Part shown: piece by piece, positions 39,967 through 59,764 of the stretch
How positions within the stretch are numbered: the first letter of the stretch is position 1
Layout: every line of letters begins with the position of its first letter
Virus record (IMG/VR): IMGVR_UViG_3300045988_171964
From: a virus
Length of the DNA: 64,000 nt
Strand: one strand, 5' to 3'
Translations under genes and position numbers: made by a program
The notes under the pieces: generated by a model
Told to the model about the DNA's origin: nothing
The model's input: only the letters and a program-made list of their open reading frames with translations
Databases searched by the model: none

Positions 39967-41784
39967 ATGGCAAGCAAAAACAAAAACAGAGTAACCAACC
40001 TGCAGCAGCTCCTAAATCGTAGTGAGGAACTGAAAGATGCAGGCTATGTAGCCGTTCGCCCGGATGCCTTTACGCCGCTTAAAAATGGCGGCGGTAAAGT
40101 CTTTTCCTGGAACGACTACGTTCACGGCATGCTCCTAACCACAGCCGGTATGTCGGCAAGCGGTGGCGACACAGGCGGTTCTGCAGCACGTCAGCAAGTC
40201 TCCACTATCTTTGCATCGAGTGGCGGCGAGAACCTGGGTAAACCGAAGGACGTAGGTACCGAAGGCTTAGGCTTTATGGAATGGGGTATGGCCAACCGAC
40301 TGCCAAATCTTATCTGGATGCTTTCCCGTATGTCGCCTTTTACAGCAGCAGGAGTAGATTACATCAAGAAGATACTGGTAGGTCGCGGTCCCGCAGCCAA
40401 GTATCATTACACCCAGTACGTTGGCGGTAACATCACGGAGAAGTATATCCCCTACGAGAGCGCAGGAGTTCTTCTCCGAGGTCAGATAGCTGACCTCAAA
40501 GCCAAGGAAGAGGCAGCCGCCGAAGCCAAGCGCCAGAACGAGCAGCAGAACCAGAACGGGCAGTCTCAACAGGAGGAGTCTCCGTTCTCTGCGGTTCAAT
40601 CGCAGGTCTTATCCACCGATGAAGAGGAAAGCGAGGAGATGAAATCCCTGAAAGAAGCACTCCACAAATGGGAAGAAACCAATGCCCAGCTTCGTGATTT
40701 CTTAGAAAACAACGACCTGATGCAGACCTTCCTCGATTTGGCAGGAGATATGGCTTTGATGTCACAATGCTTTGTAGAACTTCAGCTTAATCAGCGTTCC
40801 CTCGACGAGAACGGCAAAGCTGTTCCCACCGCTCAATGGACTCCGAAGGTGATCGGTCTGAAGCATCGCAGTATCTTCACTACCCGACTGGAGCGCATGG
40901 ACGAGAACTACCGCATCAACTATGCCTACGTCAGCAATCAGTGGCTCGACCCTACCCAATACGTCGGTGTGCAGAAAGAGGAAGACCGCAAGATAGCGGC
41001 TATCCCTTATCTCCCTACCCCATCAGCCGTGAAGGATTTGCAGCGCAAGATACGCGAGGCACGTCAGAAGAACGTAAGCCGCAAGAAACGCCCTACTCGC
41101 TTCATCATGTCGCCAAGAGATTTCGGCGGTCCATACTATGCCGATGCCCTTTGGCACTCCATCTTTGCCGGCAGCATTTTTGAGTATGCCTTCACCATCG
41201 TAGATGACCGCCTTACCCGAAAGCGCAACAGTAACATCATCGGTAGAGTTATCTATATCCATCAGGACTATATCAGCAGGCTCTATCAGCAGCAGGGTGA
41301 GAAGAAAAAGAAGACCCAGGGCGAGATTCAGAACGAAATCTTTACCTCTATCAATACCTGGCTCTCTAACCCCGATAATGCTGGTCAGGCGCTCATTTCC
41401 TCTGCCTTCACGGGCAGCGATGGGAATGAGCACAAAGCTTGGGAAATCGTAGAAATCGAAACCAAGGCAAATGATCAGGCGAATGCCGACAAAACCGAGT
41501 TGCAGGAAATAAGCAGCATCATCTTCTTTGCCATGGGACTTGATGCAAAGCTCATTGGTAATACCCCTGGCGATACGGCATCATCGGGCGGTACAGACCT
41601 GAGAGAGCGCTTCCTTGTCAAGCAAATCCAGTTTGCTCCTTTACAGCAGTTAATGATACGCCCGTTGGAAGTTTTGAGCCGATTCAACGATTGGGATGAG
41701 CACCTGGTATGGCAGATAGACCGAGAGGTATTGACCACCCTCGATAACTCGAAGACCGGAGTGGCGAAACAAGAGGCCTCTTAA
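39967..41784 (+). CDS. portal protein (putative)
   Basis: 605 aa. It opens the long plus-strand virion block behind a phage promoter. Size and overall character fit a portal, but there is no diagnostic motif. Confidence 0.5.
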   Translation: MASKNKNRVTNLQQLLNRSEELKDAGYVAVRPDAFTPLKNGGGKVFSWNDYVHGMLLTTAGMSASGGDTGGSAARQQVSTIFASSGGENLGKPKDVGTEGLGFMEWGMANRLPNLIWMLSRMSPFTAAGVDYIKKILVGRGPAAKYHYTQYVGGNITEKYIPYESAGVLLRGQIADLKAKEEAAAEAKRQNEQQNQNGQSQQEESPFSAVQSQVLSTDEEESEEMKSLKEALHKWEETNAQLRDFLENNDLMQTFLDLAGDMALMSQCFVELQLNQRSLDENGKAVPTAQWTPKVIGLKHRSIFTTRLERMDENYRINYAYVSNQWLDPTQYVGVQKEEDRKIAAIPYLPTPSAVKDLQRKIREARQKNVSRKKRPTRFIMSPRDFGGPYYADALWHSIFAGSIFEYAFTIVDDRLTRKRNSNIIGRVIYIHQDYISRLYQQQGEKKKKTQGEIQNEIFTSINTWLSNPDNAGQALISSAFTGSDGNEHKAWEIVEIETKANDQANADKTELQEISSIIFFAMGLDAKLIGNTPGDTASSGGTDLRERFLVKQIQFAPLQQLMIRPLEVLSRFNDWDEHLVWQIDREVLTTLDNSKTGVAKQEAS

Positions 41785-41826: not shown

Positions 41827-42978
41827 ATGATACTCTCTACAAATCAAGAACTCCGGCTACAGATCCCGAGCAATGCCGTGGACGATGTGGCCAACTTGCA
41901 AGGTATGCTTGATAATAGCGAGAAGGACTTTTTGAAACCTCGCTTAGGGGCATCACTCTATGACCGACTTTGCAAGTATTATGCAAGCATTGAGCCTTCT
42001 GATTTCTGTGATACAGTCATCAATGGCAATTATACTGATAATCCTTGGAGCGAACTTCTGGTTTATGCACAGCGCATGGTTGCAAATGATGCAATGGCGC
42101 AGAATGTAGAAAAACAGGTTCTCTCTATCAATGGCTCCGGTATTAACGTGGCTTCCAGCAGTGACTTTGCCGCGGCTACCAAAGACCAGATAGCACAGGG
42201 CAAAGGAAGTTTCCGAGAGACCGCCATGACTTCTCTTAATAATATGCTTTCCCTCTTAGAGGGATGGGCAAGGAAGGTGAATACTCCTATGCTTATCGAG
42301 GCAGCGGGCGATGGTACAGAAGGCAGTACTCCTTCTGATGGCAGCAATCAAGGTCCCTCATCAGAAGGAACGGATAGCGGTAATGATACCGCAACCGAAG
42401 CCGAGACCAAACGGCATGAAGCAATAGAGGAAATTGTAACCCTGTGGCAGGAAAGTAAGTACTATTACTATCATAAAAACTTGCTTTTCCCTACCTGTGA
42501 GTCCTTATATCCGTTTCTCGATATTCGCGATAACAGAGATAAGTTCATTCGCCTTATTCCCGATATGCGCTTTATTCAGAGTGAATACCTGGAAGAAGCA
42601 TTTGGCGAAGATTTCATCCCTCGCCTCTTACAGGCGAGCGAAGATGACAAGATGTTGGATAAGGCACGTCAGCTTGTAGCCGCCTATCTCAAGGAACGTA
42701 CATCAGTTATCAGTTTTGATAAGCTGACCCGCTCTACGGCGCATAATGATGCCATTACCGTAAGGGAAAGCATTCATCGGTTACTGAAGAAAGAGGAAGC
42801 CGAGAAGCAAGCCAAACTCGATGCAGCCAAAGCGGAAAACGCATCAGAAGGCAGCACTCCTTCCTCATCTACGAGTAACGCCTCTAGCACTTCATCATCG
42901 GGCAGCAAGGATAGCAGCGAAGGCTACGAGAACAACCAAAAGGGTTCGCGTATCTTCGTAACGCCTATCCTGTGCTAA
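41827..42978 (+). CDS. hypothetical virion-module protein
   Basis: 383 aa with Ser/acidic-rich patches. Confidence 0.45.
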   Translation: MILSTNQELRLQIPSNAVDDVANLQGMLDNSEKDFLKPRLGASLYDRLCKYYASIEPSDFCDTVINGNYTDNPWSELLVYAQRMVANDAMAQNVEKQVLSINGSGINVASSSDFAAATKDQIAQGKGSFRETAMTSLNNMLSLLEGWARKVNTPMLIEAAGDGTEGSTPSDGSNQGPSSEGTDSGNDTATEAETKRHEAIEEIVTLWQESKYYYYHKNLLFPTCESLYPFLDIRDNRDKFIRLIPDMRFIQSEYLEEAFGEDFIPRLLQASEDDKMLDKARQLVAAYLKERTSVISFDKLTRSTAHNDAITVRESIHRLLKKEEAEKQAKLDAAKAENASEGSTPSSSTSNASSTSSSGSKDSSEGYENNQKGSRIFVTPILC

Positions 42979-44274: not shown

Positions 44275-44310
44275 ATGTCCCCCCTAATAAGAAAAAACCT
44301 CCTATCTTTG
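44275..44310 (+). promoter_or_regulatory. phage promoter variant, ATGTCCCCC-N19-TATCTTTG
   Basis: -7 box at 44303-44310 in the same register. Gene start is at 44337. Confidence 0.5.
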
Positions 44311-44336: not shown

Positions 44337-44990
44337 ATGGCAAAGAATAAAGAAACCCCAGAACAGCGCACGCAGCGTTTCAAGACCCTTTGCGTCCATA
44401 TCCTCGCCCAGAGCGGCAACTGCCAGGAATCGCAGCATGCCTTCAAAAGCACGCAGAGCATTCCCGATATGTGCGAGGCATGGCGCAAATACTGGCACGG
44501 CTTAATCACCGAGGTACCGCAGCAGGTAATCGATGCTTTCAAGGCGGTATATCCGGAATTTAAGGCTGATATAAACCAGGGTGGTATCTTCTATAACGAG
44601 GATTCGCCCACCGGTACCGTCCTCGTAGGCGATACAGACGAGGAAATCCACCTCTACTCCTCCCGAAAGATATACGTCTTAGGCAAGGCACACGTTATCC
44701 TCCATAATGCGGCTACCGCCCTCGTGATGAATGAAGGCTGCAAAGTAGAGCTATTGGATGGCAGCAAGGCAACCATCAAGGCAGGTTACGGCATCGCCCG
44801 AAACTATGCCCACCTGGTAACTGGCAGCGAGGCAGAAAGCTACGACCAGAGTGTAGTCTTCATCACCGATGGCACTCTTCACGACCATGGGCATCAGAAA
44901 ATCAATGCTTTTGGTACGGCAACCATTGATACCTTCACCGATCGCCTCATAGATTTATACGATAACGCAAAAATAGAAATCAGAAAATGA
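44337..44990 (+). CDS. hypothetical protein
   Basis: 217 aa. ATGA overlap with the next gene. Confidence 0.45.
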   Translation: MAKNKETPEQRTQRFKTLCVHILAQSGNCQESQHAFKSTQSIPDMCEAWRKYWHGLITEVPQQVIDAFKAVYPEFKADINQGGIFYNEDSPTGTVLVGDTDEEIHLYSSRKIYVLGKAHVILHNAATALVMNEGCKVELLDGSKATIKAGYGIARNYAHLVTGSEAESYDQSVVFITDGTLHDHGHQKINAFGTATIDTFTDRLIDLYDNAKIEIRK

Positions 44991-47836
44991 ACTCACATCT
45001 TACGATATTGATAAACGACAAGCCGGTAGCTTTGCCCGATGATTTCTCAATAGATATTGAGGATCAGAACCCAGTGTTCAACGATACGGAAATGTTCTCC
45101 TATCCTTTCTCTATTCCGCTGGACGGCAACCGATGGCTGGTAAAGAACATCGAAGATATTCATGCCGCCATGAAAGCCGTGAATATGGAGCACCTGCCTA
45201 CTCGCATTCATGCCGACGGACTGCCATTCCGAAGCGGTACCTTGGTCATGCAGGACGATGAGGAAATAACCGATTCACTCTCTATGAACATCGATGCCAG
45301 CACGCAGAGTTTCAGCGAGCTAATCAGCGACCTGCAATGCCGTGATATTCCTGTAAAGGACCAGATTATCATCGGTGAGAAAATCGGTAATGTGAGGGTG
45401 GATATAGAGAGCGACCCTGTGGTAAAGGTAAATGTTTTTGTTACCGGAGGTAAGCATAAGGATGATAAGACGGAAAACCACGAAATCAGAGCCGCCCACG
45501 TAAGCGTAAGCAAGGTTCTCGAACCGCAAGCACTCGGTTTCTCTTATCCTGCCAGTTGTAAGGAATATACAAGCACATCTACCCAGCATTATAAAGGTGA
45601 TGCGTATAAGCTCTCAGAGCGTTCCTATCCGCAGAACCATACAGTAAATGAGCCTACCATCGCAAATAACGGTAACTATATAAACACCGCTGCTGCCTAT
45701 GGCGAAACCGATGGCGCGGGCAGGGCAGCCGCTTACTGCAACGCCCGTATCTGTTACAAACATCATGGTCTTGATGATGACAAGAAGACGGCGAGCGGTG
45801 TTATTAGTACGAAAGACTGTACCTGGACGAACGAAGACCTTTATCCTTATTGGGTATTGGATGCCAAACGTCCGCAGTCGGGTATCTGCTTCTATGTGCT
45901 TTATTTCCTCGATTGCCTCTTTGACTATCTGGGTGTAACTTTCGATAAGCGAGCCTTAATGCAGATAGAGGATTTGAAGCATCTCTGCTTCTTCACGACC
46001 GTATGCAGCTACGATACCGTCAGCTACCAGTATGACGAGGACGATCCTACAGGCGCAAAACAACCTAATCTTCACCCTCATCATGGTACTTATTATCGAA
46101 AAAACGATGCCGACGTAATCGCCAAGAAGAAGAAAGCTGGTGAAATCAAGACGGGTTATTTCCAAAGCCAGGAGCATATCAATTCATGGCTGGAAAGCCG
46201 TGGATGCGGTGGAAAGATTAATATCGTGAAAGCTGAGAATAAGGATGTGCAGGAATTGACTCTTCGCACACCAGAAGGTACAACCGAGCATGTGCAGGTA
46301 GGCGAGGTTCGCGATGATGGCGGCAAGGTTACTAGTATCAGCATCGAGGCAAAAATCAGCAAGTTCAAGGTACAGGCAAACGTGCTTAATATGGTAGCCA
46401 ACAGCGGCAATTTCCCTGATGAGAGCGTAAGCACCGTAATCTCATCTCTTGAAAGTGCCTTTGGTATCAAGTTCTCGTATGATTACGAGCAGAAGAAGGT
46501 AACAGCTTATCTTACCCGTGATGTGTTGCGCAAGAGCGGTAATGAGGCAAGAACGTTTCATGCCAACATCCACTCCATGGTCCCGATGACCGAGAAGATT
46601 ACAGGTGTGCGTATGCGCTATTCTGCAGAGAGTGATGCAAAAGATCAGCGTCAGAATGTACTCGATAGCCGTAGAAACAAGAACATGGGTTATTCTACCG
46701 ATTATGATTACATCGATTACCCTGCGCCAGATAGTGGCGATAACTCCACCGTCTATAATCTCGACTACATCGATTTCTTCCATAATCTGAGTAGTGGAGA
46801 TAAGCATTGTTATATCGACCGCAAGACTGGCAACGCTTATCGCGTAAAGGTGAATAGTGATGCACCCACGACAGCCGACTTGAAACCGGTACTCTTTGAG
46901 GTAGGTCAGTTTAAGGGTGTAGAATATGGAGATTGCAGCGATGAGAACGAAGATTTCATTCACGATATTTCGGTAGATTTTACTCCTGTTCCGTTCAATG
47001 ATGTGAACTATTTCAAGGAGATAGAAGCTGCCTATGGCTCTCACGAGGCAATCGACTCCTACAACGGCAAGAAATATGGTGTAACCATCGCCGATAGTCA
47101 GCCTATCCTCTGTGCTTATGTAGATGAGGATATGGAGCATGAGTTTGTGGAGCAGATTATCAATCAGACTATCTCTACTGCTTTCTGTGATTTCTACATG
47201 CAGCAGACACTATCACTCGTAGAAAGCTACGACCCGTCGAGCACCGATGATGGCAATTCTCCGTTGCAGGATGATTCACGCTGGGGATATGCGGTTGCTT
47301 TGATGCGAGGTGGTGGTAGCGATGCTACCCGCCAGTCTTACGATTATAATTACGACCACTTCGGAACGTCCAAATGGCGTACCGTATCTGGTAAGTATGC
47401 CCTGGCATGTGATTCACTGGATATGATGGGCAACGTGTTTGATTACAACGGTGTGCAGGAAGGTGTAGGCGATGGTGAACGTTTCTCGCTCAAGATACGA
47501 GCTTTCAAGGAACCATCGTGGTTAAGTGATCCGAAGTATCAAAATGTAGTACTTTGTGATAAAGATGAGGTAGATAAAAATGGTAAGGTGGTTAAGAAGG
47601 TTCGCTCCCGTGGCCTCTTTGATACCTTCATTCTCCCATACGCCTATTTCCTCTTAAATAGAAAGAAGTTTATGGTAAGATGTACCACCACCGTAGCGCA
47701 GGTGGCCGATATACCTAACCACTGGCAGGAATGGTGGAATATAGGCGGTATGAAATGCCTTATCGACAAGGTAAATACTACCATCGATGCCAAGACGGGC
47801 ATGGGCGAAGTAGAGTTAACAGTGTACGCCCTCTAA
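44987..47836 (+). CDS. large tail/baseplate-associated protein (putative)
   Basis: 949 aa, between the portal block and the tail fibre. Called by size and position only. Confidence 0.45.
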   Translation: MNSHLTILINDKPVALPDDFSIDIEDQNPVFNDTEMFSYPFSIPLDGNRWLVKNIEDIHAAMKAVNMEHLPTRIHADGLPFRSGTLVMQDDEEITDSLSMNIDASTQSFSELISDLQCRDIPVKDQIIIGEKIGNVRVDIESDPVVKVNVFVTGGKHKDDKTENHEIRAAHVSVSKVLEPQALGFSYPASCKEYTSTSTQHYKGDAYKLSERSYPQNHTVNEPTIANNGNYINTAAAYGETDGAGRAAAYCNARICYKHHGLDDDKKTASGVISTKDCTWTNEDLYPYWVLDAKRPQSGICFYVLYFLDCLFDYLGVTFDKRALMQIEDLKHLCFFTTVCSYDTVSYQYDEDDPTGAKQPNLHPHHGTYYRKNDADVIAKKKKAGEIKTGYFQSQEHINSWLESRGCGGKINIVKAENKDVQELTLRTPEGTTEHVQVGEVRDDGGKVTSISIEAKISKFKVQANVLNMVANSGNFPDESVSTVISSLESAFGIKFSYDYEQKKVTAYLTRDVLRKSGNEARTFHANIHSMVPMTEKITGVRMRYSAESDAKDQRQNVLDSRRNKNMGYSTDYDYIDYPAPDSGDNSTVYNLDYIDFFHNLSSGDKHCYIDRKTGNAYRVKVNSDAPTTADLKPVLFEVGQFKGVEYGDCSDENEDFIHDISVDFTPVPFNDVNYFKEIEAAYGSHEAIDSYNGKKYGVTIADSQPILCAYVDEDMEHEFVEQIINQTISTAFCDFYMQQTLSLVESYDPSSTDDGNSPLQDDSRWGYAVALMRGGGSDATRQSYDYNYDHFGTSKWRTVSGKYALACDSLDMMGNVFDYNGVQEGVGDGERFSLKIRAFKEPSWLSDPKYQNVVLCDKDEVDKNGKVVKKVRSRGLFDTFILPYAYFLLNRKKFMVRCTTTVAQVADIPNHWQEWWNIGGMKCLIDKVNTTIDAKTGMGEVELTVYAL

Positions 47837-47840
47837 CTCC

Positions 47841-47876
47841 CTCTCGCCCCCGTTCCCAGCGATTCTATCGCTGGTC
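47841..47876 (+). repeat. Motif-A hairpin copy A9
   Basis: CTCTCGCCCCCGTTCCCAGCGATTCTATCGCTGGTC. Confidence 0.9.
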
Positions 47877-47908: not shown

Positions 47909-49117
47909 ATGGATAAAAAGATATTGATTACCGGAACCGGTATTCATTCTGCCCTAGGCAGAAGTACAAGAGAAGTAGCCATGAACCTCTATAAGGGTAA
48001 ATGCGGATTGCATCACGACGAATGCCGCGATAAATACAATTCCGATTTATGTGGCAATGTACCTAGTTGGAAAGCAGAGTGTCTGGATATACTTACCCAC
48101 GCGCAATACGAATGTATGCCTGCACATGGTTTTTATGTGCTCGATGCGGTATTCGAGGCGCTGAAGAAAGCAAAGGTCAGTAAGGAGTTTCTTGAAAACC
48201 ATAATGTTTCACTTATCGTAAGTAACGACTCAGAATGTTATGAAAGCAAAGTTGTGGTCTCTCACGTAAAAAAGAACATCTCTAATCGTAGACTTCCGGT
48301 AACAACCCTATTCCGTTCACTTAATTCCACTATCAGCATGAACCTGGCCACTATCCTCGGCATTCATGGTTTATCGCTCACCGTTAGCGCAGCCTGTGCA
48401 GGAGGTGGCCACGCCATCGGACTAGCAAAGATGTTGCTCGATAGCAAACAGACTGAAATGGTAATTGTGATTGGTGCGCAGGAATGCGGATCTCAATATT
48501 GCATGGAAGCTTTCGATGCCCTCGGTGTCTTCTCACCTGATAAAGTACAGCCGTTTGGTAAAGGCAGAAACGGATTGGCACCATCTGGTGGCGCAGCCTG
48601 CATCATCCTCGAACCATCGGATAGTCTTCGATTGAAAGAAGAGAAGGTGCATTCATTCGCTTCCCTTTCCGGCTATGGCTTCTCTACCAATGGAAAAGCT
48701 ATCACTACCCCTGATAGTTATCAGGAAGAAGTATCTATGCTGAATGCTATCGAGAATGCAGGTTTGGATGAAGGCATGATAGACGTAGTACTTGCTCATG
48801 CTACCGGCACACCGATGGGCGATGAAGCCGAGGCAAAGGCAATAGAGAGGATCTTCCCTATCTGTCCGAACGTAGTAGCTACAAAAGGTATGACGGGTCA
48901 CGAGTGTTGGATGGCAGGTGTATCGCAAGCCATACAAGCTACCATCATGCTTACATACGGTCGTCTGTTCCATGCAGCCACTACCGAGGAGAACGCCTTC
49001 CCGAAATTGAACCTGGTGATGCGCCCTAAGTATTATTCCCCTCATCATATCCTCTGTAATGCCTTTGGCTTTGGAGGTACAAACTCCTCATTCGTTATTT
49101 CGAATGTTGAATGTTGA
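47909..49117 (+). CDS. beta-ketoacyl-ACP synthase (FabF/FabB-type, Cys-His-His)
   Basis: ILITGTGIHSALG; active-site Cys in LTVSAACAGGGHAIG; first His in VLAHATGTPMGDEAE; second His in ATKGMTGHECWMAG; NAFGFGGTNSSFVI. The last codons lie in the Motif-B left arm. Confidence 0.9.
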   Translation: MDKKILITGTGIHSALGRSTREVAMNLYKGKCGLHHDECRDKYNSDLCGNVPSWKAECLDILTHAQYECMPAHGFYVLDAVFEALKKAKVSKEFLENHNVSLIVSNDSECYESKVVVSHVKKNISNRRLPVTTLFRSLNSTISMNLATILGIHGLSLTVSAACAGGGHAIGLAKMLLDSKQTEMVIVIGAQECGSQYCMEAFDALGVFSPDKVQPFGKGRNGLAPSGGAACIILEPSDSLRLKEEKVHSFASLSGYGFSTNGKAITTPDSYQEEVSMLNAIENAGLDEGMIDVVLAHATGTPMGDEAEAKAIERIFPICPNVVATKGMTGHECWMAGVSQAIQATIMLTYGRLFHAATTEENAFPKLNLVMRPKYYSPHHILCNAFGFGGTNSSFVISNVEC

Positions 49118-49138
49118 GTGTTGATTTAGGCTAGTGCC
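49102..49138. repeat. Motif-B left arm plus loop start (B7)
   Basis: GAATGTTGAATGTTGAGTGTTGATTTAGGCTAGTGCC, fused to Motif-A copy A10 as at B3/A2. Confidence 0.85.
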
Positions 49139-49140
49139 TT

Positions 49141-49175
49141 CGCGCCTCCGTTCCCAGCGATTCTATCGCTGGTCA
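49141..49175 (+). repeat. Motif-A hairpin copy A10
   Basis: CGCGCCTCCGTTCCCAGCGATTCTATCGCTGGTCA. Confidence 0.9.
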
Positions 49176-49200
49176 GTTACTAATAAAAAGCAAAAAAAAT

Positions 49201-49473
49201 ATGAAAAAAGAAGAAATAACCTCTCGCATTATCACCATCGTGAACAGCCTGAAAACATCATGGGTAAAGCACGAAGTAACACCTGCATCTAACCTTCGTG
49301 ACGAGGTAGAACTGGAGTCTCTTGATTTCCTCGATATGATCCAGCAGGTGGAAATGATGTTCCATATCAAGATTACCCCGGAAGAGGCGAAAGATTGCAA
49401 GCTCGTTTCCGATGTAATTGCGCTCGCCGAGCGCAAAGTCAACATTCAACATTCAACACTCAACACTAAATAA
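49201..49473 (+). CDS. acyl carrier protein
   Basis: LRDEVELESLDFLDMIQQVEMMFHIKITPEEA aligns with the ACP helix II region ([20 protein letters not shown]), with the phosphopantetheine Ser in ESLD. The C-terminal NIQHSTLNTK is encoded by the Motif-B right arm. Confidence 0.85.
   Translation: MKKEEITSRIITIVNSLKTSWVKHEVTPASNLRDEVELESLDFLDMIQQVEMMFHIKITPEEAKDCKLVSDVIALAERKVNIQHSTLNTK
49439..49468. repeat. Motif-B right arm only (B8)
   Basis: TCAACATTCAACATTCAACACTCAACACTA. Confidence 0.85.
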
Positions 49474-49475: not shown

Positions 49476-50531
49476 ATGGCACAGAAAATCAATCTCACAT
49501 CTGGTTCTGTCTTTGCCGGAAACCCGATAACCTTTACCATCACCCCCTCCGTGGCTACGAATCCATCCTTCCATCGGGTTATCGTAGAAGTGAACTTTGA
49601 TGATGGTACGGGCAGTTACGAAACCAATAAGCTCACTATTCCTGTTACCACCGAGAGAAGTGATGTATCGCTCGATATATCCTCTGCTCTCCGTATTACG
49701 CTGGATAGCTACAAGTATACTGCCATTCCATCCACCTACCCCGTGGTAAGCTGGTACATCAAAGCCTACGATGAGTATATGGATAACAACGGAGAGGTGC
49801 ATACCGGTGTAGGCGAGGTCTATTATCCAGCTGATGGCTCGAAGAATAAAGGTGAAACCAACCTTCGCTGCATAGCCGGAGCCTTCAGCGATATAGAACG
49901 ATTGAAATCGGGCGTAACGAAGGCTGTCACCCTTCTCTCCTGCAAACCGACTGATACCCCCGAAATAGCCGTTGTAGGCGCGAGCTTTGTTTATCCTGTC
50001 TCCTATAGCGCAGGGCAGAACTTAGCTACCAGCAGCTCACTGACCGCCCCTGTATCTAGGGAGCAGGAAATCACGAAGGAAGGTGCGCAGAGCATTCAGG
50101 GGCACCCTATCTATGCTCTACCGTCCTCTGAAGCTGAAGACCGTACCACCTTCCGTTTCATTAACCGCTTCGGTTGTCTAGAGAGTATCAGCGTGCCGAA
50201 ATCCTACTCTCAGAAGATGAATGTCGAGAGCACGCAATATACGAAAGCTATTCAGGAAACCTTCAATCAATTCTCCCGTGCCGCTATCAAGAAGCAGAAT
50301 AATCGTGAAAGCTGGCTCTATCAGAGCGACCCGCTTACCAAGGCATGGCAGCAGTGGTATCTCCATGAGTTCCTGATGTCTGAGCACGTATGGCTGAAAG
50401 CCAATGATGCCTGGCTTCCTTGCACCATCAATCTCGAAGATGAAATAACCATCAAGGACGAAACCAACAAAAATATGTATTCCGTTTCCTTTACTGCAAA
50501 GCTAGGTATCAACGGCAACCCGCTTATTTAG
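49476..50531 (+). CDS. hypothetical tail-module protein
   Basis: 351 aa. Starts 3 nt after the ACP stop. Confidence 0.45.
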   Translation: MAQKINLTSGSVFAGNPITFTITPSVATNPSFHRVIVEVNFDDGTGSYETNKLTIPVTTERSDVSLDISSALRITLDSYKYTAIPSTYPVVSWYIKAYDEYMDNNGEVHTGVGEVYYPADGSKNKGETNLRCIAGAFSDIERLKSGVTKAVTLLSCKPTDTPEIAVVGASFVYPVSYSAGQNLATSSSLTAPVSREQEITKEGAQSIQGHPIYALPSSEAEDRTTFRFINRFGCLESISVPKSYSQKMNVESTQYTKAIQETFNQFSRAAIKKQNNRESWLYQSDPLTKAWQQWYLHEFLMSEHVWLKANDAWLPCTINLEDEITIKDETNKNMYSVSFTAKLGINGNPLI

Positions 50532-50659
50532 TGTTGAATGCTTTTATTAATGTTGAGTGTTGAATGTTGAATGTTGATTTAGGCTAGCGCCGTTGAGTCC
50601 GTTAGGCAATTCAACATTCAACATTCAACACTCAACATTTAAAAATCCCATTCAACATT
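50531..50659. repeat. Motif-B heptamer hairpin, extended full copy (B9)
   Basis: Main arms at 50549-50577 / 50610-50639. Loop reads TTTAGGCTAGCGCCGTTGAGTCCGTTAGGCAA. An extra outer arm pair lies at 50531-50540 / 50651-50659. Confidence 0.9.
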
Positions 50660-50661: not shown

Positions 50662-50697
50662 TTGTCCCCACTAAAAAAGCGAAAACCTTTATCTTTG
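50662..50697 (+). promoter_or_regulatory. phage promoter, TTGTCCCCA-N19-TATCTTTG
   Basis: TTG at 50662 and the -7 box at 50690-50697. Gene start is at 50730. Confidence 0.6.
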
Positions 50698-50729: not shown

Positions 50730-53700
50730 ATGGCAACAGAAGCAAAAAATACAAATTATTGGATCTCGAGCACTGCGCTCTCTATCCAGCTAAATTCGAT
50801 GGGAGAGCCTGACTACATCCAGTGTAGTGTAGTATCGGGCGCTTCGGTCCTCTGCTATATGAGCGATGTGCCAGGCTTGGGCTATGATGCCGGTCACAAC
50901 TATCAGCGCTGGACGCTTGCTGCCTATCCTTCTATCTTCCCCGATAGCAAACGGAAGTATGTGTATATCGCCATTCCACGACAGTCTACCACCGATAATA
51001 ACCAGGCTACCGTCGTGTTCCCTGGTGAGAAGATAGATATATATGGTAAGACTATTCCATCTTCCGGAACTGAAGGTGTGCAGATAGGTAACGAGGCTTA
51101 TTACTATATCTTTACAGGCGGTATCATATCTGCTGTAAAGACCGATGCCGACAATACCAGAAAGCGAGAATGGGAACAGCATTTTGATTGCGGTAAACTG
51201 GCTACCGACGAGGCGATAGCCAGCGGCGGTGAAGGCGAATGGTGGCGGTATAATTCCGTATCAGATACCATCACCTTCCTCAAGGAGATTCTGAAGGCAA
51301 ACTTTAATGAATTGTCGGCAAAGGTAGCTCGCGTAACCAGTCTTTTCCTGGGTGGGCATGAACTGAGGGGCGTTGCTGACAGTAACGGCACCCTGGAAAT
51401 AAGCGATGATACCGTAGTTACCCCTCAGTATCTCGGTCAGTTTGGGGTGAAGCATTTCCTTGCCAAGGATAAGGATGATACGGCCCATGGCACTATCACT
51501 TGGGAGAAGGTTCAGAAGTTCTTGCAGGGGTTGCATGTCGGTAACCGCAACAATGAGAACGGAGGTTCCTGGACTCCCGATGCAGAAGGTCGTTCACACC
51601 TCATAACAGATTACTTGGAGGTAAGAATGAAGGCTATCTTCGAGGAGCTGGTCATCAATAAAACATCCACCATCGGTGGTAAGGAGATAATCTCTCCTGC
51701 TGGCGGTGTGGTGGCTCATAAGGTAGAAGAGGTTACTGTGACATATAATAATGTGTCACAGAAGGCTTATCGTTGCTACTTCCTCGCAGAGCAGGAAGGC
51801 GATTCTGTAGATAATGATTTCGCTGTTAACGATCAGGTGCGCTCGGAATCATTCAATGTACGCAAGGGCACTTACCACAAAGTTGGCAATCACTTTTACT
51901 GGCGATTGGTAATCGGTCGTGATGAAGACCCTGTAGAGCTGGAAGGAAAGAAATATCATTATATCGACCTCTCTGATACCGATTGCGCTACGGCAAGCGA
52001 TGTTCCTGCTAAAGGTGATGTGCTCAACCAGTGCGGTAATAGAACCGATGTAGAACGTCAGAACTGCCTTATCTTCTCGGCGGTAGATACCTATTCGCCA
52101 TCCATCAGCCTCTATCACGGCATCAATAGCTATTCCTTTGCCAATAGGGAGTATGTGGAATATGGTGTGAATAAGCAGACTAACAGGGCTTTCTTCCATG
52201 TCTACGGAGATATGTACTTCGGAGACCGACCTACTAGTGCCAATAACTACGAGGGTGATTCCTATGTCAAGTTTGATAGCGAGACGAAGAAAGTAACCAT
52301 CAAGGGAGACTTGGATATTAAGTCCACCTATGATGGCAAAACCTTGGATAAGTACATCACCGAGAAGAGCTTGGATAAGAATGCCGTTGAGACCATTATC
52401 AATAAATCGCAGACGATTATCGACCTTCAAAACCAGATAGACGGAGCTATTGAGACTTGGTTCTATGACGGCGTTCCTACTTTGAAGAATGCTCCAGCCA
52501 TCAGTTGGAAGACCGACAATGATAAGAAAACCCACTTGGGAGACCTCTACTATGACAACAAGACGGGCAAGGCATACCGCTTTGCCAAGGATGGCTCTAC
52601 CTATGAGTGGATTATCATCACAGATACGGAGCTGACCAAGGCACTCAAAGATTCAAGCCAAGCACTCAAAGATGCAGCCGCTGCGGATAAGAAGGCTAAT
52701 GGAGCGCAAGCTACCGCCAACACCAAGAGACGCATCTTCGGCTCTCAGCCAGTTCCACCATACGATGTGAACGATATGTGGGTGAACGCAACCTATCCGA
52801 ACGATGGTAGCACTTACAAGAACGAAATCTTGAAGTGTTCCACCGCCAAGGCAGAAGGCGAAAAGTTCGATATTGCCGATTGGAAATTGGCTAGCAAGTA
52901 TACCGATGACACGAAGGCAGAGGAAGCCAAGAAAGCTGCTGAGAAGGCGCAAGAAGAGATTAAGACGACACAGAGCAACTTGAACGCCCTCGGAACGACT
53001 GTTACCGAAAACAAAAAGACGTTCGACAGCTACGTCAAAGATGGCTACCTAGAGCCTTCTGAGATTGCTGCAATGTCGCAGGATTCCAAGCGACTTGAAG
53101 ATGCTTTCGCAGCTGCCGAGAAGTCGTACAATGAAGTGAAGGGAGCAGAGGTGTTAAAGAGTACAAAAGAACTCACCGACCTTAATACTGCTTTCACTAC
53201 TCTCTCTACTGCCAAGACGGAACTCGTTACGTATCTCTCAGATATATCTACAAATTACAATAAGGCTGATACTACCGGCAAGGCTGCCATCGTATCTGCT
53301 GTCGGAACGAAGTTTACCAACTTCCAAAGCGCATATTCTGCCTTCTATGACAAGCTGGGTTTGGCAAACGCATATATCACTAGCAAGATATATGGTGACT
53401 TGAAGCAGAATATCACAGACCTCGCAGGTTACAAGTATCTCAAGGATGCGCTCGGTCAGACTACATATGTTGACGGTGGTCTTGTAATGACAACGCTCCT
53501 TGCGCTGAGAGACGGAGACGGAAACGTTCAGAGCGGTATCAACGGAGCAATAGACCCGAATAGAGGAAAGAAGAGTATCGCAACATGGTGGGGCGGTCAG
53601 ATGGTGGATAAGGACTATAATAGCGGAAATCTTACCCCTGCAACCTCCCTCATCCGCTTCGATGGCTCGGGTTATCTTGCCAATGGTGCTATCTGGTGGG

Positions 53701-56700
53701 ATGTGAGCGGAAAGGTTCACGCAGACCCGACATCGTTTATCATCAGTGAGAAGAATCTTGGCGCATACCTCACCTTCTTCGAGCCGACTTGGAAGGAAGG
53801 AAGTGCAGGAACGAGCGTTGCTGACCTTGTGTCTTTGAAGCCAAACGCTCCATTCTCCAAACTTGGCGTATCGGGCGATGCTACATTCGAAGGCGCAATC
53901 TCCTTCCATGGCATTAAGCTCACGTATGATTCCAAAAACAAGGCTATCAAAATTGATGGCAATCTCTATACCACAGGTGGTATCACGGCATACGGAGCAG
54001 GAGCATCTACCACGGGTGGTGGCGGCTTGAACGGCAGTGTGAAGAGTTATTCAAATGCCTTGAAGCTTACATCAGAATCGCTGTCTGAGATAGCTTCTGC
54101 CTACTCCATCAAGGCTCTTGATTCTCGTATCTCCAGCTTGGAAGGTGGTAGTGCTACTGCTATTTCTGTCAGCGGTAGCGGTAATGCGGTTACGTCTGTC
54201 ACCAAGGATGGTACTACTATCAGCGTAGTTAAAGGTAGTACGTTCTTAACTAGTCATCAGTCACTTGATGGTTACGTTAATGCAATATCTGTAAGTGGAA
54301 GTGGGAATGCTATCACGTCTGTATCTAAAAGCGGAAAGGGTATTACATTTACTAAAGGTGCTACATTTTTAACTTCTCACCAAAGTCTTGCTAACTATTA
54401 TACCAAAAGTAGTGTAGATTCACTTCTTAGTGGTAAGTCGGCAACTAGTCATACACATAGTGTTAAGATTAACGGTGTTACTAAAACTATTGCAGCTACT
54501 GGTGGAACTGCTGTAGATTTAGGAACTTATCTTACTAGTCATCAATCTCTTAATGGGTATGCTACGCAATCTTGGGTTAAAAGTCAAGGTTATCTTACTA
54601 CCCATCAAGATGTTAGTATTCTTAACATGGCTAATGATAGATATTATTATAAAGATAATTATGGTATAAATATGCGAAATTCTGATATTATTGGAGTTAA
54701 TAGTATTTATACTAAAGATTTATCTGATGACCCTTCAGAAGCTATTCTATTTTGTAGAAGTAACGGTAACTATGATGGTATTCGTGCAGCAAATGGAGTA
54801 TTATATTTTAGCAATAATGTAGTTAGAACTACTAGAAAATATGATGCTGAATATGAAGTTTATCATAAAGGTAATCTTACTAAACTTAGTCAACTTACTA
54901 ATGACAAGAACTTTGTTACTGGTTCTGTAAGTGGTCAAACTATTACTATCAATGGTGTTTCTACTACTTGGCAAAATACTTGGAGAGGAATTACTGATAG
55001 TTATAGTGGAACTTCTACTGGTACTAGTCTTAGTCAAAAAGGTGCAAATAGTTTATATAATGCTTTGCATAATGGATATGCTAGCAGCGCAGGTAATGCA
55101 GATACTGTAGATGGTTATCATGCTAATGGTAGCAATGTTGCACCCTATGGGCATATACCTACTATAGAAAGCGATGGAGTAATGGAAGTAGGTAAATATA
55201 TTGACTTTCATAATGATAATAGCGGTAAACATGATTTTTCTACTAGATTACTAACTACTGGTAATTATGGAAATTCAGTTAATCTTCCATCAGTAGGTGG
55301 TACATTAGCGTTAACTTCTGACAATGTAGCTTCTGCAACAAAACTTGCGGCAGCAAGAACGATATGGGGTCAAAGTTTTGATGGTACTGGAAATGTTAAT
55401 GGAACTATATACATAAATAATAGTGATTCTGAAAACGGAGCTATAATATTAAATAATAATGTAAATGCTAATGCTCGTATATCAGCTATAAAAGACCAAG
55501 TAGTATTTAATACTGGTGCTGCTATTCGTTTTGGAGCAACCAACTGGGAGTATAGTGATTGGGCTGGTCTTAAATATGATACTGTTGCTAATGCTATATA
55601 TTTAGGTATAGCCGATGGAACTGTATTTAATTATTATTCTAATAAAAGAAGTAATGGTACACTTAAATTTCCAGGTATTACAACTATAACTCCTGATAGT
55701 GGAGCTAGAATTGGAGGTAGCGGTGGTGATTTATATTTAGGTAATGGTAATAATACTAATTGGGTGAAAGTTCAAGACATGTGTAGTCAAGTAAATAGTA
55801 GTTATTGGAACATAACACAATTCGGTAGTGCTACGTTTAAAAGTCTTACTGTTAATGATGTTATTAGTTGTGATAGTATTAGTGTTAGTAAAAATGCCGT
55901 TATTGCTGGTAATTTATCAGTTAACGGTTTAATAAATAATAAAGGTATATTACCTACAAATTATGAAGTTAATAATAAAGGAATGGGTTGTTATGTTTCA
56001 GCTGATGCTTTATGTTCTGGAATTACTGCTATTACTGATAGTATACCAGTTGATAATCTTTCTATAGTTTATAGTAATGATAATGGTACTAATTGGACTA
56101 ATTATAATATATCAAATGATACTAAATTTAAGGCGTATGCGAATGTTGCAGGTGTTGATGGTTTTACCTTAGGTGGCAATGTTATCACTGGTAATACTGA
56201 TGCTGAAAAGTTAGCTCAAATAAAAAAGAACGAATTAATGTTTTCGTTTGAAATTCCTAATTCTTGTTATTCTCAAGTATATTTTGCTTGTGTTGATATG
56301 GGACAAGGTGTTGGTGTTACTTGTACTGTAGAATATTTAAATAGTAAAGGTGTTATAGTCAATACTTATATTAAATATATGACCGGACGGAATCAGTTTA
56401 ATTATATAAATTTATCTAATGGTAATACGGCTTTTGGTGTAGGAAATGATGATAGAAGATATATTCGTTTTAAATTTAAACATGACCAAAATACTACTGC
56501 ATTACGAAATGCTTCAATAAATAGAATACGAATATTTGCTTTTACTAAGTATTCATTTCCTACTGATAGATTTATGGGGCATACAGGTCATATATATAAC
56601 TTTGATTATAATTTGAATACTTACTTCCCTAATGGCATTCTTGCTAAAGGTGGAGTTACAGCTTATCAATCTTCAGACATCCGCCTGAAGCAGGATTTGC

Positions 56701-57047
56701 GGAAGCTGGACTACTTGGGTATCATCAAGGCAATGGGTGGCACTTATGGCTTTGCCTGGAAGAAGGACAACACAAGGTCTATCGGTTGGATTGCCCAACA
56801 CGTCTTGTGCAACCCTCACTTAAAGGACATCGTGGAGACTGACGAGAAGGGCTACTACAAGATTAACTACTGGTCTCCGAAGCTGATTGCAACGGCATTC
56901 GGTGCTATCGAGCAGGTGGGCGATGAGGTCAGCAGGTTGAAGGCTCGGGTGGTCTTCCTTGAATCAGAGGTTCTGCGATTGAGTGGAGATAAGGAAGACT
57001 GCAACAAGAAGAGATTAGATAACAAGAATATTAATTCATTAAATTAG
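50730..57047 (+). CDS. tail fibre / tail spike protein with C-terminal S74-type intramolecular chaperone domain
   Basis: 2105 aa with repetitive beta-rich sequence and (F/Y)LT(S/T)HQ repeats. The C-terminus SSDIRLKQDL...IGWIAQHV...YYKINY...AIEQV..LKARVVFLESEV matches the SDxRxK auto-cleaving chaperone domain. Confidence 0.85.
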   Translation: MATEAKNTNYWISSTALSIQLNSMGEPDYIQCSVVSGASVLCYMSDVPGLGYDAGHNYQRWTLAAYPSIFPDSKRKYVYIAIPRQSTTDNNQATVVFPGEKIDIYGKTIPSSGTEGVQIGNEAYYYIFTGGIISAVKTDADNTRKREWEQHFDCGKLATDEAIASGGEGEWWRYNSVSDTITFLKEILKANFNELSAKVARVTSLFLGGHELRGVADSNGTLEISDDTVVTPQYLGQFGVKHFLAKDKDDTAHGTITWEKVQKFLQGLHVGNRNNENGGSWTPDAEGRSHLITDYLEVRMKAIFEELVINKTSTIGGKEIISPAGGVVAHKVEEVTVTYNNVSQKAYRCYFLAEQEGDSVDNDFAVNDQVRSESFNVRKGTYHKVGNHFYWRLVIGRDEDPVELEGKKYHYIDLSDTDCATASDVPAKGDVLNQCGNRTDVERQNCLIFSAVDTYSPSISLYHGINSYSFANREYVEYGVNKQTNRAFFHVYGDMYFGDRPTSANNYEGDSYVKFDSETKKVTIKGDLDIKSTYDGKTLDKYITEKSLDKNAVETIINKSQTIIDLQNQIDGAIETWFYDGVPTLKNAPAISWKTDNDKKTHLGDLYYDNKTGKAYRFAKDGSTYEWIIITDTELTKALKDSSQALKDAAAADKKANGAQATANTKRRIFGSQPVPPYDVNDMWVNATYPNDGSTYKNEILKCSTAKAEGEKFDIADWKLASKYTDDTKAEEAKKAAEKAQEEIKTTQSNLNALGTTVTENKKTFDSYVKDGYLEPSEIAAMSQDSKRLEDAFAAAEKSYNEVKGAEVLKSTKELTDLNTAFTTLSTAKTELVTYLSDISTNYNKADTTGKAAIVSAVGTKFTNFQSAYSAFYDKLGLANAYITSKIYGDLKQNITDLAGYKYLKDALGQTTYVDGGLVMTTLLALRDGDGNVQSGINGAIDPNRGKKSIATWWGGQMVDKDYNSGNLTPATSLIRFDGSGYLANGAIWWDVSGKVHADPTSFIISEKNLGAYLTFFEPTWKEGSAGTSVADLVSLKPNAPFSKLGVSGDATFEGAISFHGIKLTYDSKNKAIKIDGNLYTTGGITAYGAGASTTGGGGLNGSVKSYSNALKLTSESLSEIASAYSIKALDSRISSLEGGSATAISVSGSGNAVTSVTKDGTTISVVKGSTFLTSHQSLDGYVNAISVSGSGNAITSVSKSGKGITFTKGATFLTSHQSLANYYTKSSVDSLLSGKSATSHTHSVKINGVTKTIAATGGTAVDLGTYLTSHQSLNGYATQSWVKSQGYLTTHQDVSILNMANDRYYYKDNYGINMRNSDIIGVNSIYTKDLSDDPSEAILFCRSNGNYDGIRAANGVLYFSNNVVRTTRKYDAEYEVYHKGNLTKLSQLTNDKNFVTGSVSGQTITINGVSTTWQNTWRGITDSYSGTSTGTSLSQKGANSLYNALHNGYASSAGNADTVDGYHANGSNVAPYGHIPTIESDGVMEVGKYIDFHNDNSGKHDFSTRLLTTGNYGNSVNLPSVGGTLALTSDNVASATKLAAARTIWGQSFDGTGNVNGTIYINNSDSENGAIILNNNVNANARISAIKDQVVFNTGAAIRFGATNWEYSDWAGLKYDTVANAIYLGIADGTVFNYYSNKRSNGTLKFPGITTITPDSGARIGGSGGDLYLGNGNNTNWVKVQDMCSQVNSSYWNITQFGSATFKSLTVNDVISCDSISVSKNAVIAGNLSVNGLINNKGILPTNYEVNNKGMGCYVSADALCSGITAITDSIPVDNLSIVYSNDNGTNWTNYNISNDTKFKAYANVAGVDGFTLGGNVITGNTDAEKLAQIKKNELMFSFEIPNSCYSQVYFACVDMGQGVGVTCTVEYLNSKGVIVNTYIKYMTGRNQFNYINLSNGNTAFGVGNDDRRYIRFKFKHDQNTTALRNASINRIRIFAFTKYSFPTDRFMGHTGHIYNFDYNLNTYFPNGILAKGGVTAYQSSDIRLKQDLRKLDYLGIIKAMGGTYGFAWKKDNTRSIGWIAQHVLCNPHLKDIVETDEKGYYKINYWSPKLIATAFGAIEQVGDEVSRLKARVVFLESEVLRLSGDKEDCNKKRLDNKNINSLN
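54159..54404 (+). repeat. 2 x 123-nt (41-aa) tandem repeat inside the tail fibre
   Basis: AISVSGSGNAVTSVTKDGTTISVVKGSTFLTSHQSLDGYVN / AISVSGSGNAITSVSKSGKGITFTKGATFLTSHQSLANYYT. Shorter LTSHQSLNGY and LTTHQD copies follow. Confidence 0.85.
54230..56670 (+). other. AT-rich mosaic block inside the tail fibre gene
   Basis: Abrupt shift by eye from ~50% GC to clearly AT-rich codons (ggt/act/aat/tta). Composition returns to normal exactly at the start of the chaperone domain. Confidence 0.7.
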
Positions 57048-57055
57048 ATTAGAAA

Positions 57056-57361
57056 ATGGAGAATTTAAAGATTAACAAGAAGAGTGAACAGACAACCGCC
57101 ACTTACACCAAGGGTGGCTATCGAGTAGAAATCACCTACAATGTTGACAAGACTGGTGGCAACATCGAGAGCATCAATATGAGTATCTATGGTGACCCAA
57201 ATGGTAATTATCTCGGCAATGCCAACGCAAGCTTCAACGGCAGCGAGCTGACCTACAACATCAGCGGTGTTCCGCAGAGCAAGCTCAGTGAGGTATCAGC
57301 ATTGATCAAGGAGGTTAATTCCGCTATCGCCGCTAATATGGCAAGCGAGGCAGCAGAGTAA
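57056..57361 (+). CDS. hypothetical protein
   Basis: 101 aa with normal phage composition. Confidence 0.45.
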   Translation: MENLKINKKSEQTTATYTKGGYRVEITYNVDKTGGNIESINMSIYGDPNGNYLGNANASFNGSELTYNISGVPQSKLSEVSALIKEVNSAIAANMASEAAE

Positions 57362-57546
57362 GTATTAACGCAGGGTGGCTCTTATAGAGCTGCCTTGCCT
57401 AGTGTTTTAAGTTCTAAAGATTAGCGTATGGAACGCTTTATATTATAGCTTGCGAAAGTGTTCAATGTAACAGTAGAGCGAGTTGTTACTAAAGAAGTTG
57501 TAACAGAATTAGAAACTAAAGTTGAATATTTAAAAAAATAAAGATT

Positions 57547-58824: not shown

Positions 58825-58862
58825 TATTTATTTATTAATTAAATAAAAATAAAGAAACAATT

Positions 58863-59327: not shown

Positions 59328-59349
59328 ACACTGATAAGTAGATATAGAA

Positions 59350-59396
59350 ATAGCGTTAGAATTTGGCAAGAAAGCCGTTCTAACGCTATTTTTTTT
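59350..59396 (+). terminator. intrinsic terminator ending the virion block
   Basis: 12-bp stem ATAGCGTTAGAA / TTCTAACGCTAT followed by T8. Confidence 0.85.
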
Positions 59397-59685
59397 GTGT
59401 GAATGCGTCTCATATCGTGGAATGGAGTTGGTATACAACTAAAGATATGATTGATTCTTGCTTTACCGTAATGATAGTAACAGCAATGTTTTATATATAC
59501 GGATTTTTTGACATGTTTATCAGTCGCCTCAAGTTAGGACGTAAAATCTGTGCATGATTATGGGAAAGATACTAAATTATGAGAGAAGATTTGGCAATAT
59601 AAGGTATATCCCCTGCCATGTTTCGAGTGGGAAGATGTGGTGAGATGTTTCCTCGTTATCCTTCTCGGCTGGCTCATCTCTTAAA

Positions 59686-59711: not shown

Positions 59712-59724
59712 GCCTTAACCCCTT

Positions 59725-59758: not shown

Positions 59759-59764
59759 CGTAAC

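Follow-up and report, generated by a model that had tools for sequence, protein, structure and literature searches.

A ketosynthase and acyl carrier protein cassette in a lineage of human-gut phages: ancestry, position and possible role

Why would a tailed phage carry, between genes of its virion, a condensing enzyme of the fatty-acid and polyketide type together with its own carrier protein? This question is raised by a stretch of 64,000 nucleotides (nt) from IMG/VR record IMGVR_UViG_3300045988_171964 (hereafter the window), in which a beta-ketoacyl-ACP synthase (ketosynthase, KS) of 402 amino acids (aa; 47909..49117, + strand) is followed by a 90-aa acyl carrier protein (ACP; 49201..49473, + strand). 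The window comes from a tailed phage that is known from metagenomes of the human gut and whose genome measures ∼100–105 kb. The original prediction placed weight on the position of the pair in a tail/baseplate block and considered that it might acylate a virion protein or make a lipid for adsorption or exit, boost host lipid synthesis, or act as a decoy of the host fatty-acid synthase (FAS).

We lean towards reading the pair as a self-contained set of accessory genes, of the moron or auxiliary-metabolic type, which would alter the lipid or pigment chemistry of the host and is not a component of the virion. Phage auxiliary metabolic genes (AMGs) are already known and lone phage ACPs have been catalogued. 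What appears to be new is a condensing enzyme of secondary-metabolite (i.e. flexirubin/aryl-polyene) ancestry with its own ACP, in a phage-specific clade, of which we found no account in the literature searched. That literature also yielded no paper characterizing KS–ACP pairs within structural modules, in line with what the original prediction had stated.

Identity and ancestry of the two proteins

The KS, a predicted elongating enzyme of the KAS I/II type (thiolase fold), matches PF00109 (1.4e-25, 90.8 bits) and PF02801 (1.5e-18, 67.4 bits), both above the gathering score of 20.8, and aligns end to end with FabB and FabF crystal structures (top match 4XOX, 2.7e-40). In an alignment anchored on Escherichia coli FabB it has Cys163, His298, Thr300/302, Lys328, His333 and the gating Phe392. 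The Cys-His-Lys-His set is kept in all 73 distinct phage KS sequences and the gating Phe in 72 of them, with a single Phe-to-Leu change. A complete enzyme with a Cys-His-His context had been proposed for this open reading frame (ORF); the frame lies where it was placed, all four quoted motifs are real and were correctly read, and the active-site residues align. The accompanying label of a FabF/B-type enzyme stands for the fold, the catalytic set and the length, which the phage KS shares with FabB and FabF, but not for orthology: the NCBIfam equivalog scores (168.6 bits against a cut-off of 630 for FabB, and 167.3 against 493.75 for FabF) are far below both cut-offs, identity to housekeeping KSs is ∼24–28%, and the tree separates the family of the phage KS from E. 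coli FabB and FabF at 97% bootstrap. These comparisons show that the phage enzyme is no copy of housekeeping FabB or FabF.

Two more specific assignments were rejected. ApeR is a homodimeric, stand-alone FabB-like KS without a chain-length factor, which raises the throughput of a type II, FAS-like route to polyenes in which FabD is borrowed (PMC8358021). The phage KS is likewise a stand-alone FabB-like enzyme, but ApeR works inside a full proteobacterial aryl-polyene (APE) cluster, and orthology was rejected because the ApeR homologue 4EWG matches the phage KS more weakly (79.4 bits) than Vibrio cholerae FabB does (141.7 bits). A heterodimer of KS and chain-length factor of the type II polyketide synthase kind was rejected because, for the window and the related loci compared, family sweeps and the ORF map place no further KS-like ORF next to the KS.

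The bacterial relatives of the KS are found in another setting. An exhaustive search of 1.8 billion protein representatives returned only ∼20 stand-alone proteins with an identity of at least 35%, and PHROGs contain no family for the KS. At least 588 matched stretches in GTDB species genomes encode a KS relative, and the 80 GTDB loci that were kept are nearly all from named Bacteroidota, with full-length KSs 38–42% identical to the phage enzyme. A GHECWM(A/S)G segment, which follows the second catalytic His, is common to the window KS, its phage relatives and the Bacteroidota cluster KSs (GHECWMAG in six of six aligned bacterial KSs), whereas FabB and FabF have GH(S/L)LGAAG there.

In Flavobacterium, Pfam assignments give the order FAD halogenase-like gene, aromatic amino-acid lyase, short-chain dehydrogenase-type (SDR) ketoreductase (KR), KS and ACP, followed by a lipid-A-type (LpxL-like) acyltransferase, a KS III, small dehydratase-like ORFs and an ABC transporter; Chryseobacterium and Sphingobacterium have a similar cluster, judged by ORF layout. 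The published flexirubin cluster begins with flxA (tyrosine ammonia-lyase), flxB (reductase) and flxC (ketosynthase) (PMC3992019), and by its match to this gene order the Flavobacterium-type cluster is a flexirubin cluster. A cousin KS of gut Bacteroidales-like origin (37% identity, on >180 contigs) lies in the order KS, ACP, ApeP-like, ApeI-like, MMPL, oxidase, KR, LolA and thioesterase.

In a neighbour-joining (NJ) tree, the lineage of the window groups with a second set of phage KSs (the L060 group) at 80%, and the wider phage set is recovered at 78%, adjoining the KSs of Bacteroidota pigment clusters. The KS belongs to the flexirubin/aryl-polyene (FlxC-type) family of the Bacteroidota, within which the phage copies form a clade of their own. 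A KS identity of 38–42% over the full length, the GHECWMAG motif, the order KS then ACP and the place in the tree all link the phage pair with the FlxC-type pairs of Chitinophaga, Flavobacterium, Chryseobacterium and gut Bacteroidales. The difference is in what surrounds them: the bacterial genes stand amid a lyase, KR, dehydratases, an acyltransferase, KS III, a thioesterase and exporters, whereas the phage has the KS and ACP only.

The second protein was described in the original prediction as a carrier with a phosphopantetheine-site helix, and this is upheld. It scores 25.0 bits against PF00550 (gathering score 20.8) and matches phrog_5934, 'acyl carrier protein', at 1.8e-8; its core measures ∼82 aa, and the serine of its ESLD motif lines up with the DSLD serine of solved ACPs and is the predicted phosphopantetheine site. 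An ACP follows the KS in all 57 loci of the lineage, and this serine is invariant in every one. Its best NCBIfam score (43.3 bits) is below the cut-off of 66 for AcpP-type equivalogs and subfamilies, which marks the protein as a divergent, specialized carrier. The phage ACPs are less acidic than AcpP (pI 4.4–5.6 vs 4.05).

The pairwise ratio of non-synonymous to synonymous change (dN/dS) is 0.12 in the KS gene and 0.16 in the ACP gene, within the 0.07–0.16 of the flanking genes, and both genes are under purifying selection. Because the catalytic residues and the ACP serine are invariant and dN/dS is low, the pair is probably functional and selected, and catalysis would be what selection preserves.

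The nearest KS relatives outside the lineage, likewise on phage-like contigs, also have a carrier beside them: an ACP adjoins the KS in six of six contig contexts examined and in nearly every full locus. In L060 and L304 (KS 44% and 40% identical by phmmer) the order is ACP then KS, and the genes around them encode DnaN, a methylase, a primase-like protein and ThyX. In L063 (39%) a KR precedes KS and ACP, next to glucosaminidase, OmpA and Band_7 genes. In L302 (35%) the KS and ACP are surrounded by genes for RNase H, a radical SAM protein, ferritin and a helicase, and L301 (38%) also has KS then ACP; the ACPs of L302 and L301, formerly unannotated, were recognized by an ACP profile built here (9e-17 and 3e-11, respectively). 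Additional carriers occur near some KSs. A second ACP-like ORF of L301 (L301:2267-2527) lacks the serine, having DEFEF where DSLD is expected, and a second ACP lies ∼4.6 kb downstream of the KS in L382 (L382:11990-12229).

Position of the pair in related phages

Relatives of the KS at 58–99% identity occur on 57 IMG/VR contigs, mostly of 50–110 kb, and the KS is also matched among thousands of metagenomic proteins. INPHARED contains no cultured or annotated relative of the window phage, GTDB genomes contain no copy of it, and a tRNA search of the window found none. The host may be a member of the Bacteroidota, to judge by indirect signals alone (i.e. the KS relatives in GTDB, matches to Polaribacter phage Leef_1 and a TAnnTTTG box).

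The gene order portal–adaptor–370–217–949–KS–ACP–351–fibre, in which numbers give protein lengths in aa, is strictly kept in relatives down to 58% KS identity, and in the clade of the window the pair is located inside the morphogenesis block. The insertion is bordered on the left by the conserved 949-aa protein (44987..47836, +) and on the right by a 351-aa protein predicted to be beta-rich (49476..50531, +), whose start lies 3 nt past the ACP stop. The original prediction had named the 949-, 351- and 2105-aa ORFs as neighbours and the last as a tail fibre; the ORFs and, through a Peptidase_S74 domain, the fibre label were borne out, while nothing in Pfam, PHROGs, INPHARED or PDB-sequence profile searches bore out the description of the 949-aa protein as a tail-module protein.

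A comparison of synteny in related phages, which had been proposed as a check, gives a more varied picture outside this clade. IMG/VR was searched through the neighbouring 949-aa gene, without using the KS as a query, and 75 loci were obtained. All 51 closer relatives with a full-length locus have the order 949–KS–ACP–351 as far as each locus reaches. A sister clade of 23 loci (L358–L380, e.g. IMGVR_UViG_3300045988_177209), on contigs of 34–100 kb, has a 949-aa homologue with 46–51% identity and the order 217–949–351–fibre, in which the 351-aa homologue starts ∼30–90 nt past the stop of the 949-aa gene. Profile searches found no KS or ACP in these 23 loci. The back-translated TGHECWM motif is carried by 76 of 2.9 million IMG/VR contigs, none of them from the sister clade; the cassette is rare, yet it is fixed and selected in an abundant lineage of human-gut phages.

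A third, distant group shares with the window phage a 2072-aa protein (33–37% identity), a primase-like protein (∼45%) and ThyX (∼39%), and some of its members also share 366-aa (∼40%) and 217-aa (34%) proteins. Here the order is ACP then KS, and the two genes follow the homologue of the 2072-aa or the 366-aa protein and precede the primase-like gene. Within one phage family, the KS–ACP module is therefore present at two sites in opposite internal order, or absent.

Because presence and site vary within the family, we regard the cassette as accessory cargo rather than part of the virion, and its location in a structural block looks incidental. A role of the pair as a component of the virion structural module was rejected, since the surrounding genes are present without it in 23 loci. 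The cassette is host-derived, inserted between otherwise adjacent genes and variable in presence and site, as expected of a moron or AMG; by the classical definition, a moron also has a promoter and a terminator of its own. It resembles other phage AMGs and morons, including lone ACPs (phrog_5934), as non-essential host-derived cargo between conserved genes that one clade has and its sister lacks, but it differs from them in forming a phage-specific KS–ACP clade, no example of which was found in the literature searched. The weight that the original prediction had put on the tail/baseplate position is thus not sustained, given the sister clade without the pair and the other sites in related and unrelated phages; genes between tail genes need not serve the tail. 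The sister clade, which lacks the KS and ACP, offers a natural 'minus' control. Together, the clade with the cassette, its sister without it and the relatives with the cassette at another site form a natural comparison set, which makes the proposal directly testable.

Promoter-like signals are consistent with expression of the pair together with its neighbours. The motif TAnnTTTG is five-fold enriched in intergenic DNA of the + strand (11 observed vs 4.4 ± 2.1 in shuffles), and in the 39–58 kb block it occurs at two places only, as TATCTTTG, a Bacteroidota-type −7 promoter-like box: 34 nt upstream of the 217-aa gene (44303..44310, +) and 40 nt upstream of the fibre gene (50690..50697, +). No such box precedes the KS or the ACP, each of which is preceded by a repeat hairpin. 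The two boxes and a long hairpin between the 351-aa gene and the fibre promoter (50543..50645) suggest a single transcription unit, 217–949–KS–ACP–351, running from the box at 44303 to that hairpin. A scan for sigma-70 promoters and intrinsic terminators showed no enrichment.

Host-dependent chemistry and competing explanations

If the pair is catalytic, where would the other enzymes come from? Pfam sweeps of the window ORFs found no FAS-type acyltransferase, KR, dehydratase (DH), enoyl reductase, malonyl transferase, thioesterase or phosphopantetheinyl transferase (PPTase). The region beyond the window was read on a close relative, IMGVR_UViG_3300045988_157284 (105,406 bp), whose KS and probe proteins are 96–99% identical; among 48 more ORFs over ∼34 kb, the sweep identified only a methylase, DnaN, a helix-turn-helix (HTH) protein and YopX, and no helper enzyme. 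The absence of acyltransferase, KR, DH and PPTase genes noted in the original prediction therefore holds in the window and over these ∼34 kb of the relative, and so does its view that the pair does not form a pathway by itself and has to rely on enzymes of the host. Host AcpS would be required for holo-ACP, because no PPTase gene was found in the phage. The sole other acyl-transfer-type gene of the window encodes a small GNAT-family acetyltransferase (121 aa; 3977..4342, +) and lies 44 kb from the KS.

We propose that the KS and ACP go back to a capture in an ancestor of these ∼100-kb gut phages and would have been kept since under purifying selection. The two genes would be co-transcribed with the late unit 217–949–KS–ACP–351. 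Host AcpS or another host PPTase would make holo-ACP and host FabD would load malonyl on the phage ACP; the KS would then condense an acyl or aryl-acyl primer with malonyl-ACP, and host KR and DH enzymes, from FAS II or from an aryl-polyene-like cluster of the host, would complete each cycle. The result would be a specialized acyl chain on a private, phage-controlled carrier pool, which may be passed to host enzymes, so that infected cells come to differ in the lipid or pigment chemistry of their envelope. If the pair is active in this way, phages can divert to a private carrier pool the step at which host lipid or polyketide synthesis forms C–C bonds, and this would be a new route to manipulate the envelope chemistry of dominant gut bacteria.

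Such a division of labour has cellular counterparts in NodE/NodF and in ApeR. In rhizobia, the specialized KS and ACP pair NodE/NodF builds an acyl chain of an unusual kind and leaves the other steps to housekeeping FAS enzymes and AcpS. NodE/NodF, and AcpXL with its FabF-like partners, resemble the phage pair in the logic of a specialized KS plus ACP, and differ in being cellular and in having a known downstream acyltransferase (NodA and LpxXL, respectively). Specialized ACPs such as AcpXL rely on housekeeping modification, and E. coli phosphopantetheinylates foreign specialized ACPs (PMC9386255). Reconstitution of APE synthesis employs the FAS enzyme FabD (PMC8358021).

Several points weigh against the accessory-cassette proposal. 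Absence from the sister clade was read from 15-kb loci and a scan for exact TGHECWM, and the contigs may be incomplete. The sweep for helper enzymes covers ∼98 of ∼105 kb, ∼7.7 kb of the reference genome lying outside it. The phage clade and its placement as sister to the bacterial pigment KSs have only moderate support (66–80%, NJ). The ACP is 22–27% identical to flexirubin ACPs compared with 26% to E. coli AcpP; because it is no nearer to the former than to the latter, KS and ACP need not have been captured together. The proposed operon is read from a short promoter-like motif, a compatible PPTase, KR, DH or aryl-polyene-type cluster in the host is assumed, and the substrate and product of the pair are purely inferred.

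How do other explanations fare against the same evidence? The one to be taken most seriously, though we consider it unlikely, is that the pair adds elongation capacity to host FAS II, so that phospholipid synthesis is maintained during infection and host feedback or shut-off is bypassed. The FabB fold, the full set of FabB catalytic residues and FabB enzymes as top PDB matches would all fit such a booster, as would the lack of a pathway-specific tailoring gene with the cassette in this phage and the PHROGs classification of lone phage ACPs (phrog_5934) as 'moron, auxiliary metabolic gene and host takeover'. However, a recent copy of host fabF would then be expected, whereas the KS is as far from housekeeping KSs as noted above and its bacterial kin stand in pigment clusters rather than fab operons. 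The changed GHECWMAG segment, which adjoins the second catalytic His, hints that the substrate pocket differs, and an unrelated phage (L063) adds a dedicated KR, as pigment clusters do. The boost of host lipid synthesis considered in the original prediction is weakened accordingly, the KS being of flexirubin/aryl-polyene type and not a FabF/FabB copy. A decoy, in which the proteins would titrate host FabD, AcpS or ACP-binding partners without catalysis and so shut down host FAS, is the least probable of the explanations weighed here: host ACP is a hub with many partners, for which a late foreign ACP could compete, but an ACP decoy needs no KS, nor would it need the strictly conserved catalytic residues and ACP serine that purifying selection maintains.

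We give little credence to a diffusible beta-ketoacyl- or polyketide-derived compound sensed by a regulator, for instance the LysR-family protein of the phage (30821..31726). That the same phage encodes such a regulator with a ligand-binding domain, and that a lone KS and ACP without reductive enzymes could release beta-keto products, speak for this idea, which is nevertheless wholly speculative and calls for a thioesterase or release enzyme, of which the sweeps of the phage found none. Still less credible to us is the virion-linked role, i.e. an acyl group attached to a tail or baseplate protein or a lipid used for adsorption or exit. It draws on the placement of the pair between conserved same-strand genes of the virion block in the clade of the window, on the mere 3 nt between the ACP and the 351-aa gene, and on a transcription unit probably held in common with virion-block genes. 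Against it, the sister clade retains 217–949–351–fibre without the pair, the cassette stands beside replication genes in related phages and lysis-type genes in the unrelated phage L063, and the searches found no acyltransferase that could transfer the acyl group onto a protein; the 351-aa protein is predicted to be beta-rich and has no enzyme signature. A more far-reaching proposal, which we consider doubtful in its full form, is that gut Bacteroidota phages use a private KS–ACP pair plus host enzymes to make a specialized polyene or beta-ketoacyl lipid or signal, which may serve outer-membrane remodelling (e.g. as protection from superinfection or oxidative stress), as a diffusible signal read by the LysR regulator of the phage or in the acylation of the adjacent virion proteins. 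If a specialized product is indeed made, this would be phage-directed natural-product biosynthesis.

Repeats and other genes of the window

Two families of intergenic repeats surround the cassette. Repeat A is a hairpin of the general form CCAGCGAT-TCY-ATCGCTGG, with a conserved 5′ flank CCCTCTCGCCCCCGTTC and 3′ TC. The window holds 11 copies of 19 nt compared with 0.03 expected, all on the + strand, starting at 11711, 20061, 20664, 21961, 29753, 35667, 39805, 44246, 47856, 49154 and 59738; the clearest lie 16–37 nt past a stop codon. One copy (CCAGCGAT-TCT-ATCGCTGG; 47856..47874, +) lies 35 nt before the KS start and another (49154..49172, +) 29 nt before the ACP start. Its sites vary between close relatives, and divergent members of the lineage are without the repeat A sequence. 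It may act in RNA processing or stability, as an attenuator or as a recombination site.

Repeat B consists of TGTTGA(A/G) heptamers that form long hairpins with arms of up to 38 nt and a loop of ∼30 nt. The hairpin at 50543..50645, the proposed end of the transcription unit, is an intact copy (38-nt arms, 27-nt loop); others lie at ∼4330–4430, 25019–25098 and 35269–35362, with half copies at 5320–5353, 20005–20031 and 26552–26578. At the cassette itself a copy is split: its left arm (TGTTGAR heptamers; 49097..49127, +) overlaps the KS stop codon, and its right arm (49436..49469, − strand), complementary to 49097–49127, encodes an optional ACP tail, NIQHSTLNTK. The 308 nt between the arms hold one copy of repeat A and the whole ACP ORF. 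The last nine ACP residues (IQHSTLNTK), encoded by the repeat arm, are missing in many relatives, and ACP variants of 82 and 90 aa exist. The place of the ACP between split arms of one element may hint at a role of such repeats in shuffling. In T4-type phages, promoter-terminator stem-loops (PeSLs) flank mobile cassettes (PMC2839356, PMC4122927). PeSLs are alike in being repeated intergenic stem-loops that bracket accessory genes at sites varying between close relatives, but their sequences and phage group are unrelated.

The conserved morphogenesis block starts with a 605-aa portal protein (39967..41784, +), recognized by tblastn against the Leef_1 portal (5e-16) and by a family profile (2e-23). 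It is followed by a 383-aa head-tail adaptor-like protein of the DUF6712 family (41827..42978, +; Pfam 9.8e-12), whose family profile matches the 'adaptor protein' of Leef_1 at 3.6e-7, and further downstream by the 2105-aa tail fibre (50730..57047, +), which has a conserved N-terminus, a variable C-terminal region and a C-terminal Peptidase_S74 chaperone (PF13884). Conservation of the fibre among relatives is limited to the first ∼550 aa.

The genes next to the cassette are less easily placed. The 949-, 351-, 217- and 370-aa proteins have no match in Pfam, PHROGs, INPHARED (tblastn) or PDB-sequence profile searches, and protein-search matches to the 949-aa protein are all at least 92% identical. 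PADLOC models match neither the KS and ACP nor the 217-, 949- and 370-aa proteins, and the 351-aa protein only at chance level. An AlphaFold2 (AF2) model of the 351-aa protein from a 24-sequence alignment has a mean confidence (pLDDT) of 47, and its fold search in BFVD led to uncharacterized phage proteins only. This ORF was also weighed as a counterpart of the acyltransferase encoded behind the ACP in bacterial clusters, and was rejected because the two show no similarity.

The 217-aa protein (44337..44990, +), the first gene of the proposed operon, is also present in the sister clade without KS and ACP; its single-sequence AF2 model (pLDDT 44) is unusable. Its family has a weak likeness to the protein just after the ACP in L063 (L063:11417-12214; hmmsearch 1.3e-6, hhalign 70% probability, E 4e-5), with a common motif GT(L/V)D.(R/H)GH..I.A(F/Y)G.A, and no convincing match to an L301 protein or counterpart in the other KS-bearing contigs or bacterial clusters compared. 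A 217-like protein as a required third partner of KS and ACP was rejected, given its presence in the KS-less sister clade.

Other identified genes of the window encode a head maturation protease, DNA methylases, a tape-measure-like protein, ThyX, a LysR-family regulator, a GH108 lysin, a holin, a PAPS reductase, GNAT and a guanylate kinase. The tape-measure-like protein (2072 aa; 13689..19907, +) has weak tape-measure PHROG matches only, the best at 3.9e-19 over residues 275–714; it lies 25 kb from the portal–fibre block, and downstream of it come primase-like and nucleotide-metabolism genes. The LysR-family regulator (30821..31726, +) is complete, with HTH_1 and LysR substrate-binding domains and a match to phrog_3736, and is unusual phage cargo. 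An HNH/homing-endonuclease gene (62076..63629, +; phrog_559, 2.5e-48), found in the window and a few near-identical contigs, is probably a mobile insertion, because it is missing at the matching site in the close relative 157284. Finally, G+C content falls from ∼47% to ∼35% over 54001–60000, where the C-terminal region of the fibre and the ORFs after it (57056..59327) are encoded. These low-G+C regions are those that differ among relatives, consistent with horizontally exchanged receptor-binding modules.

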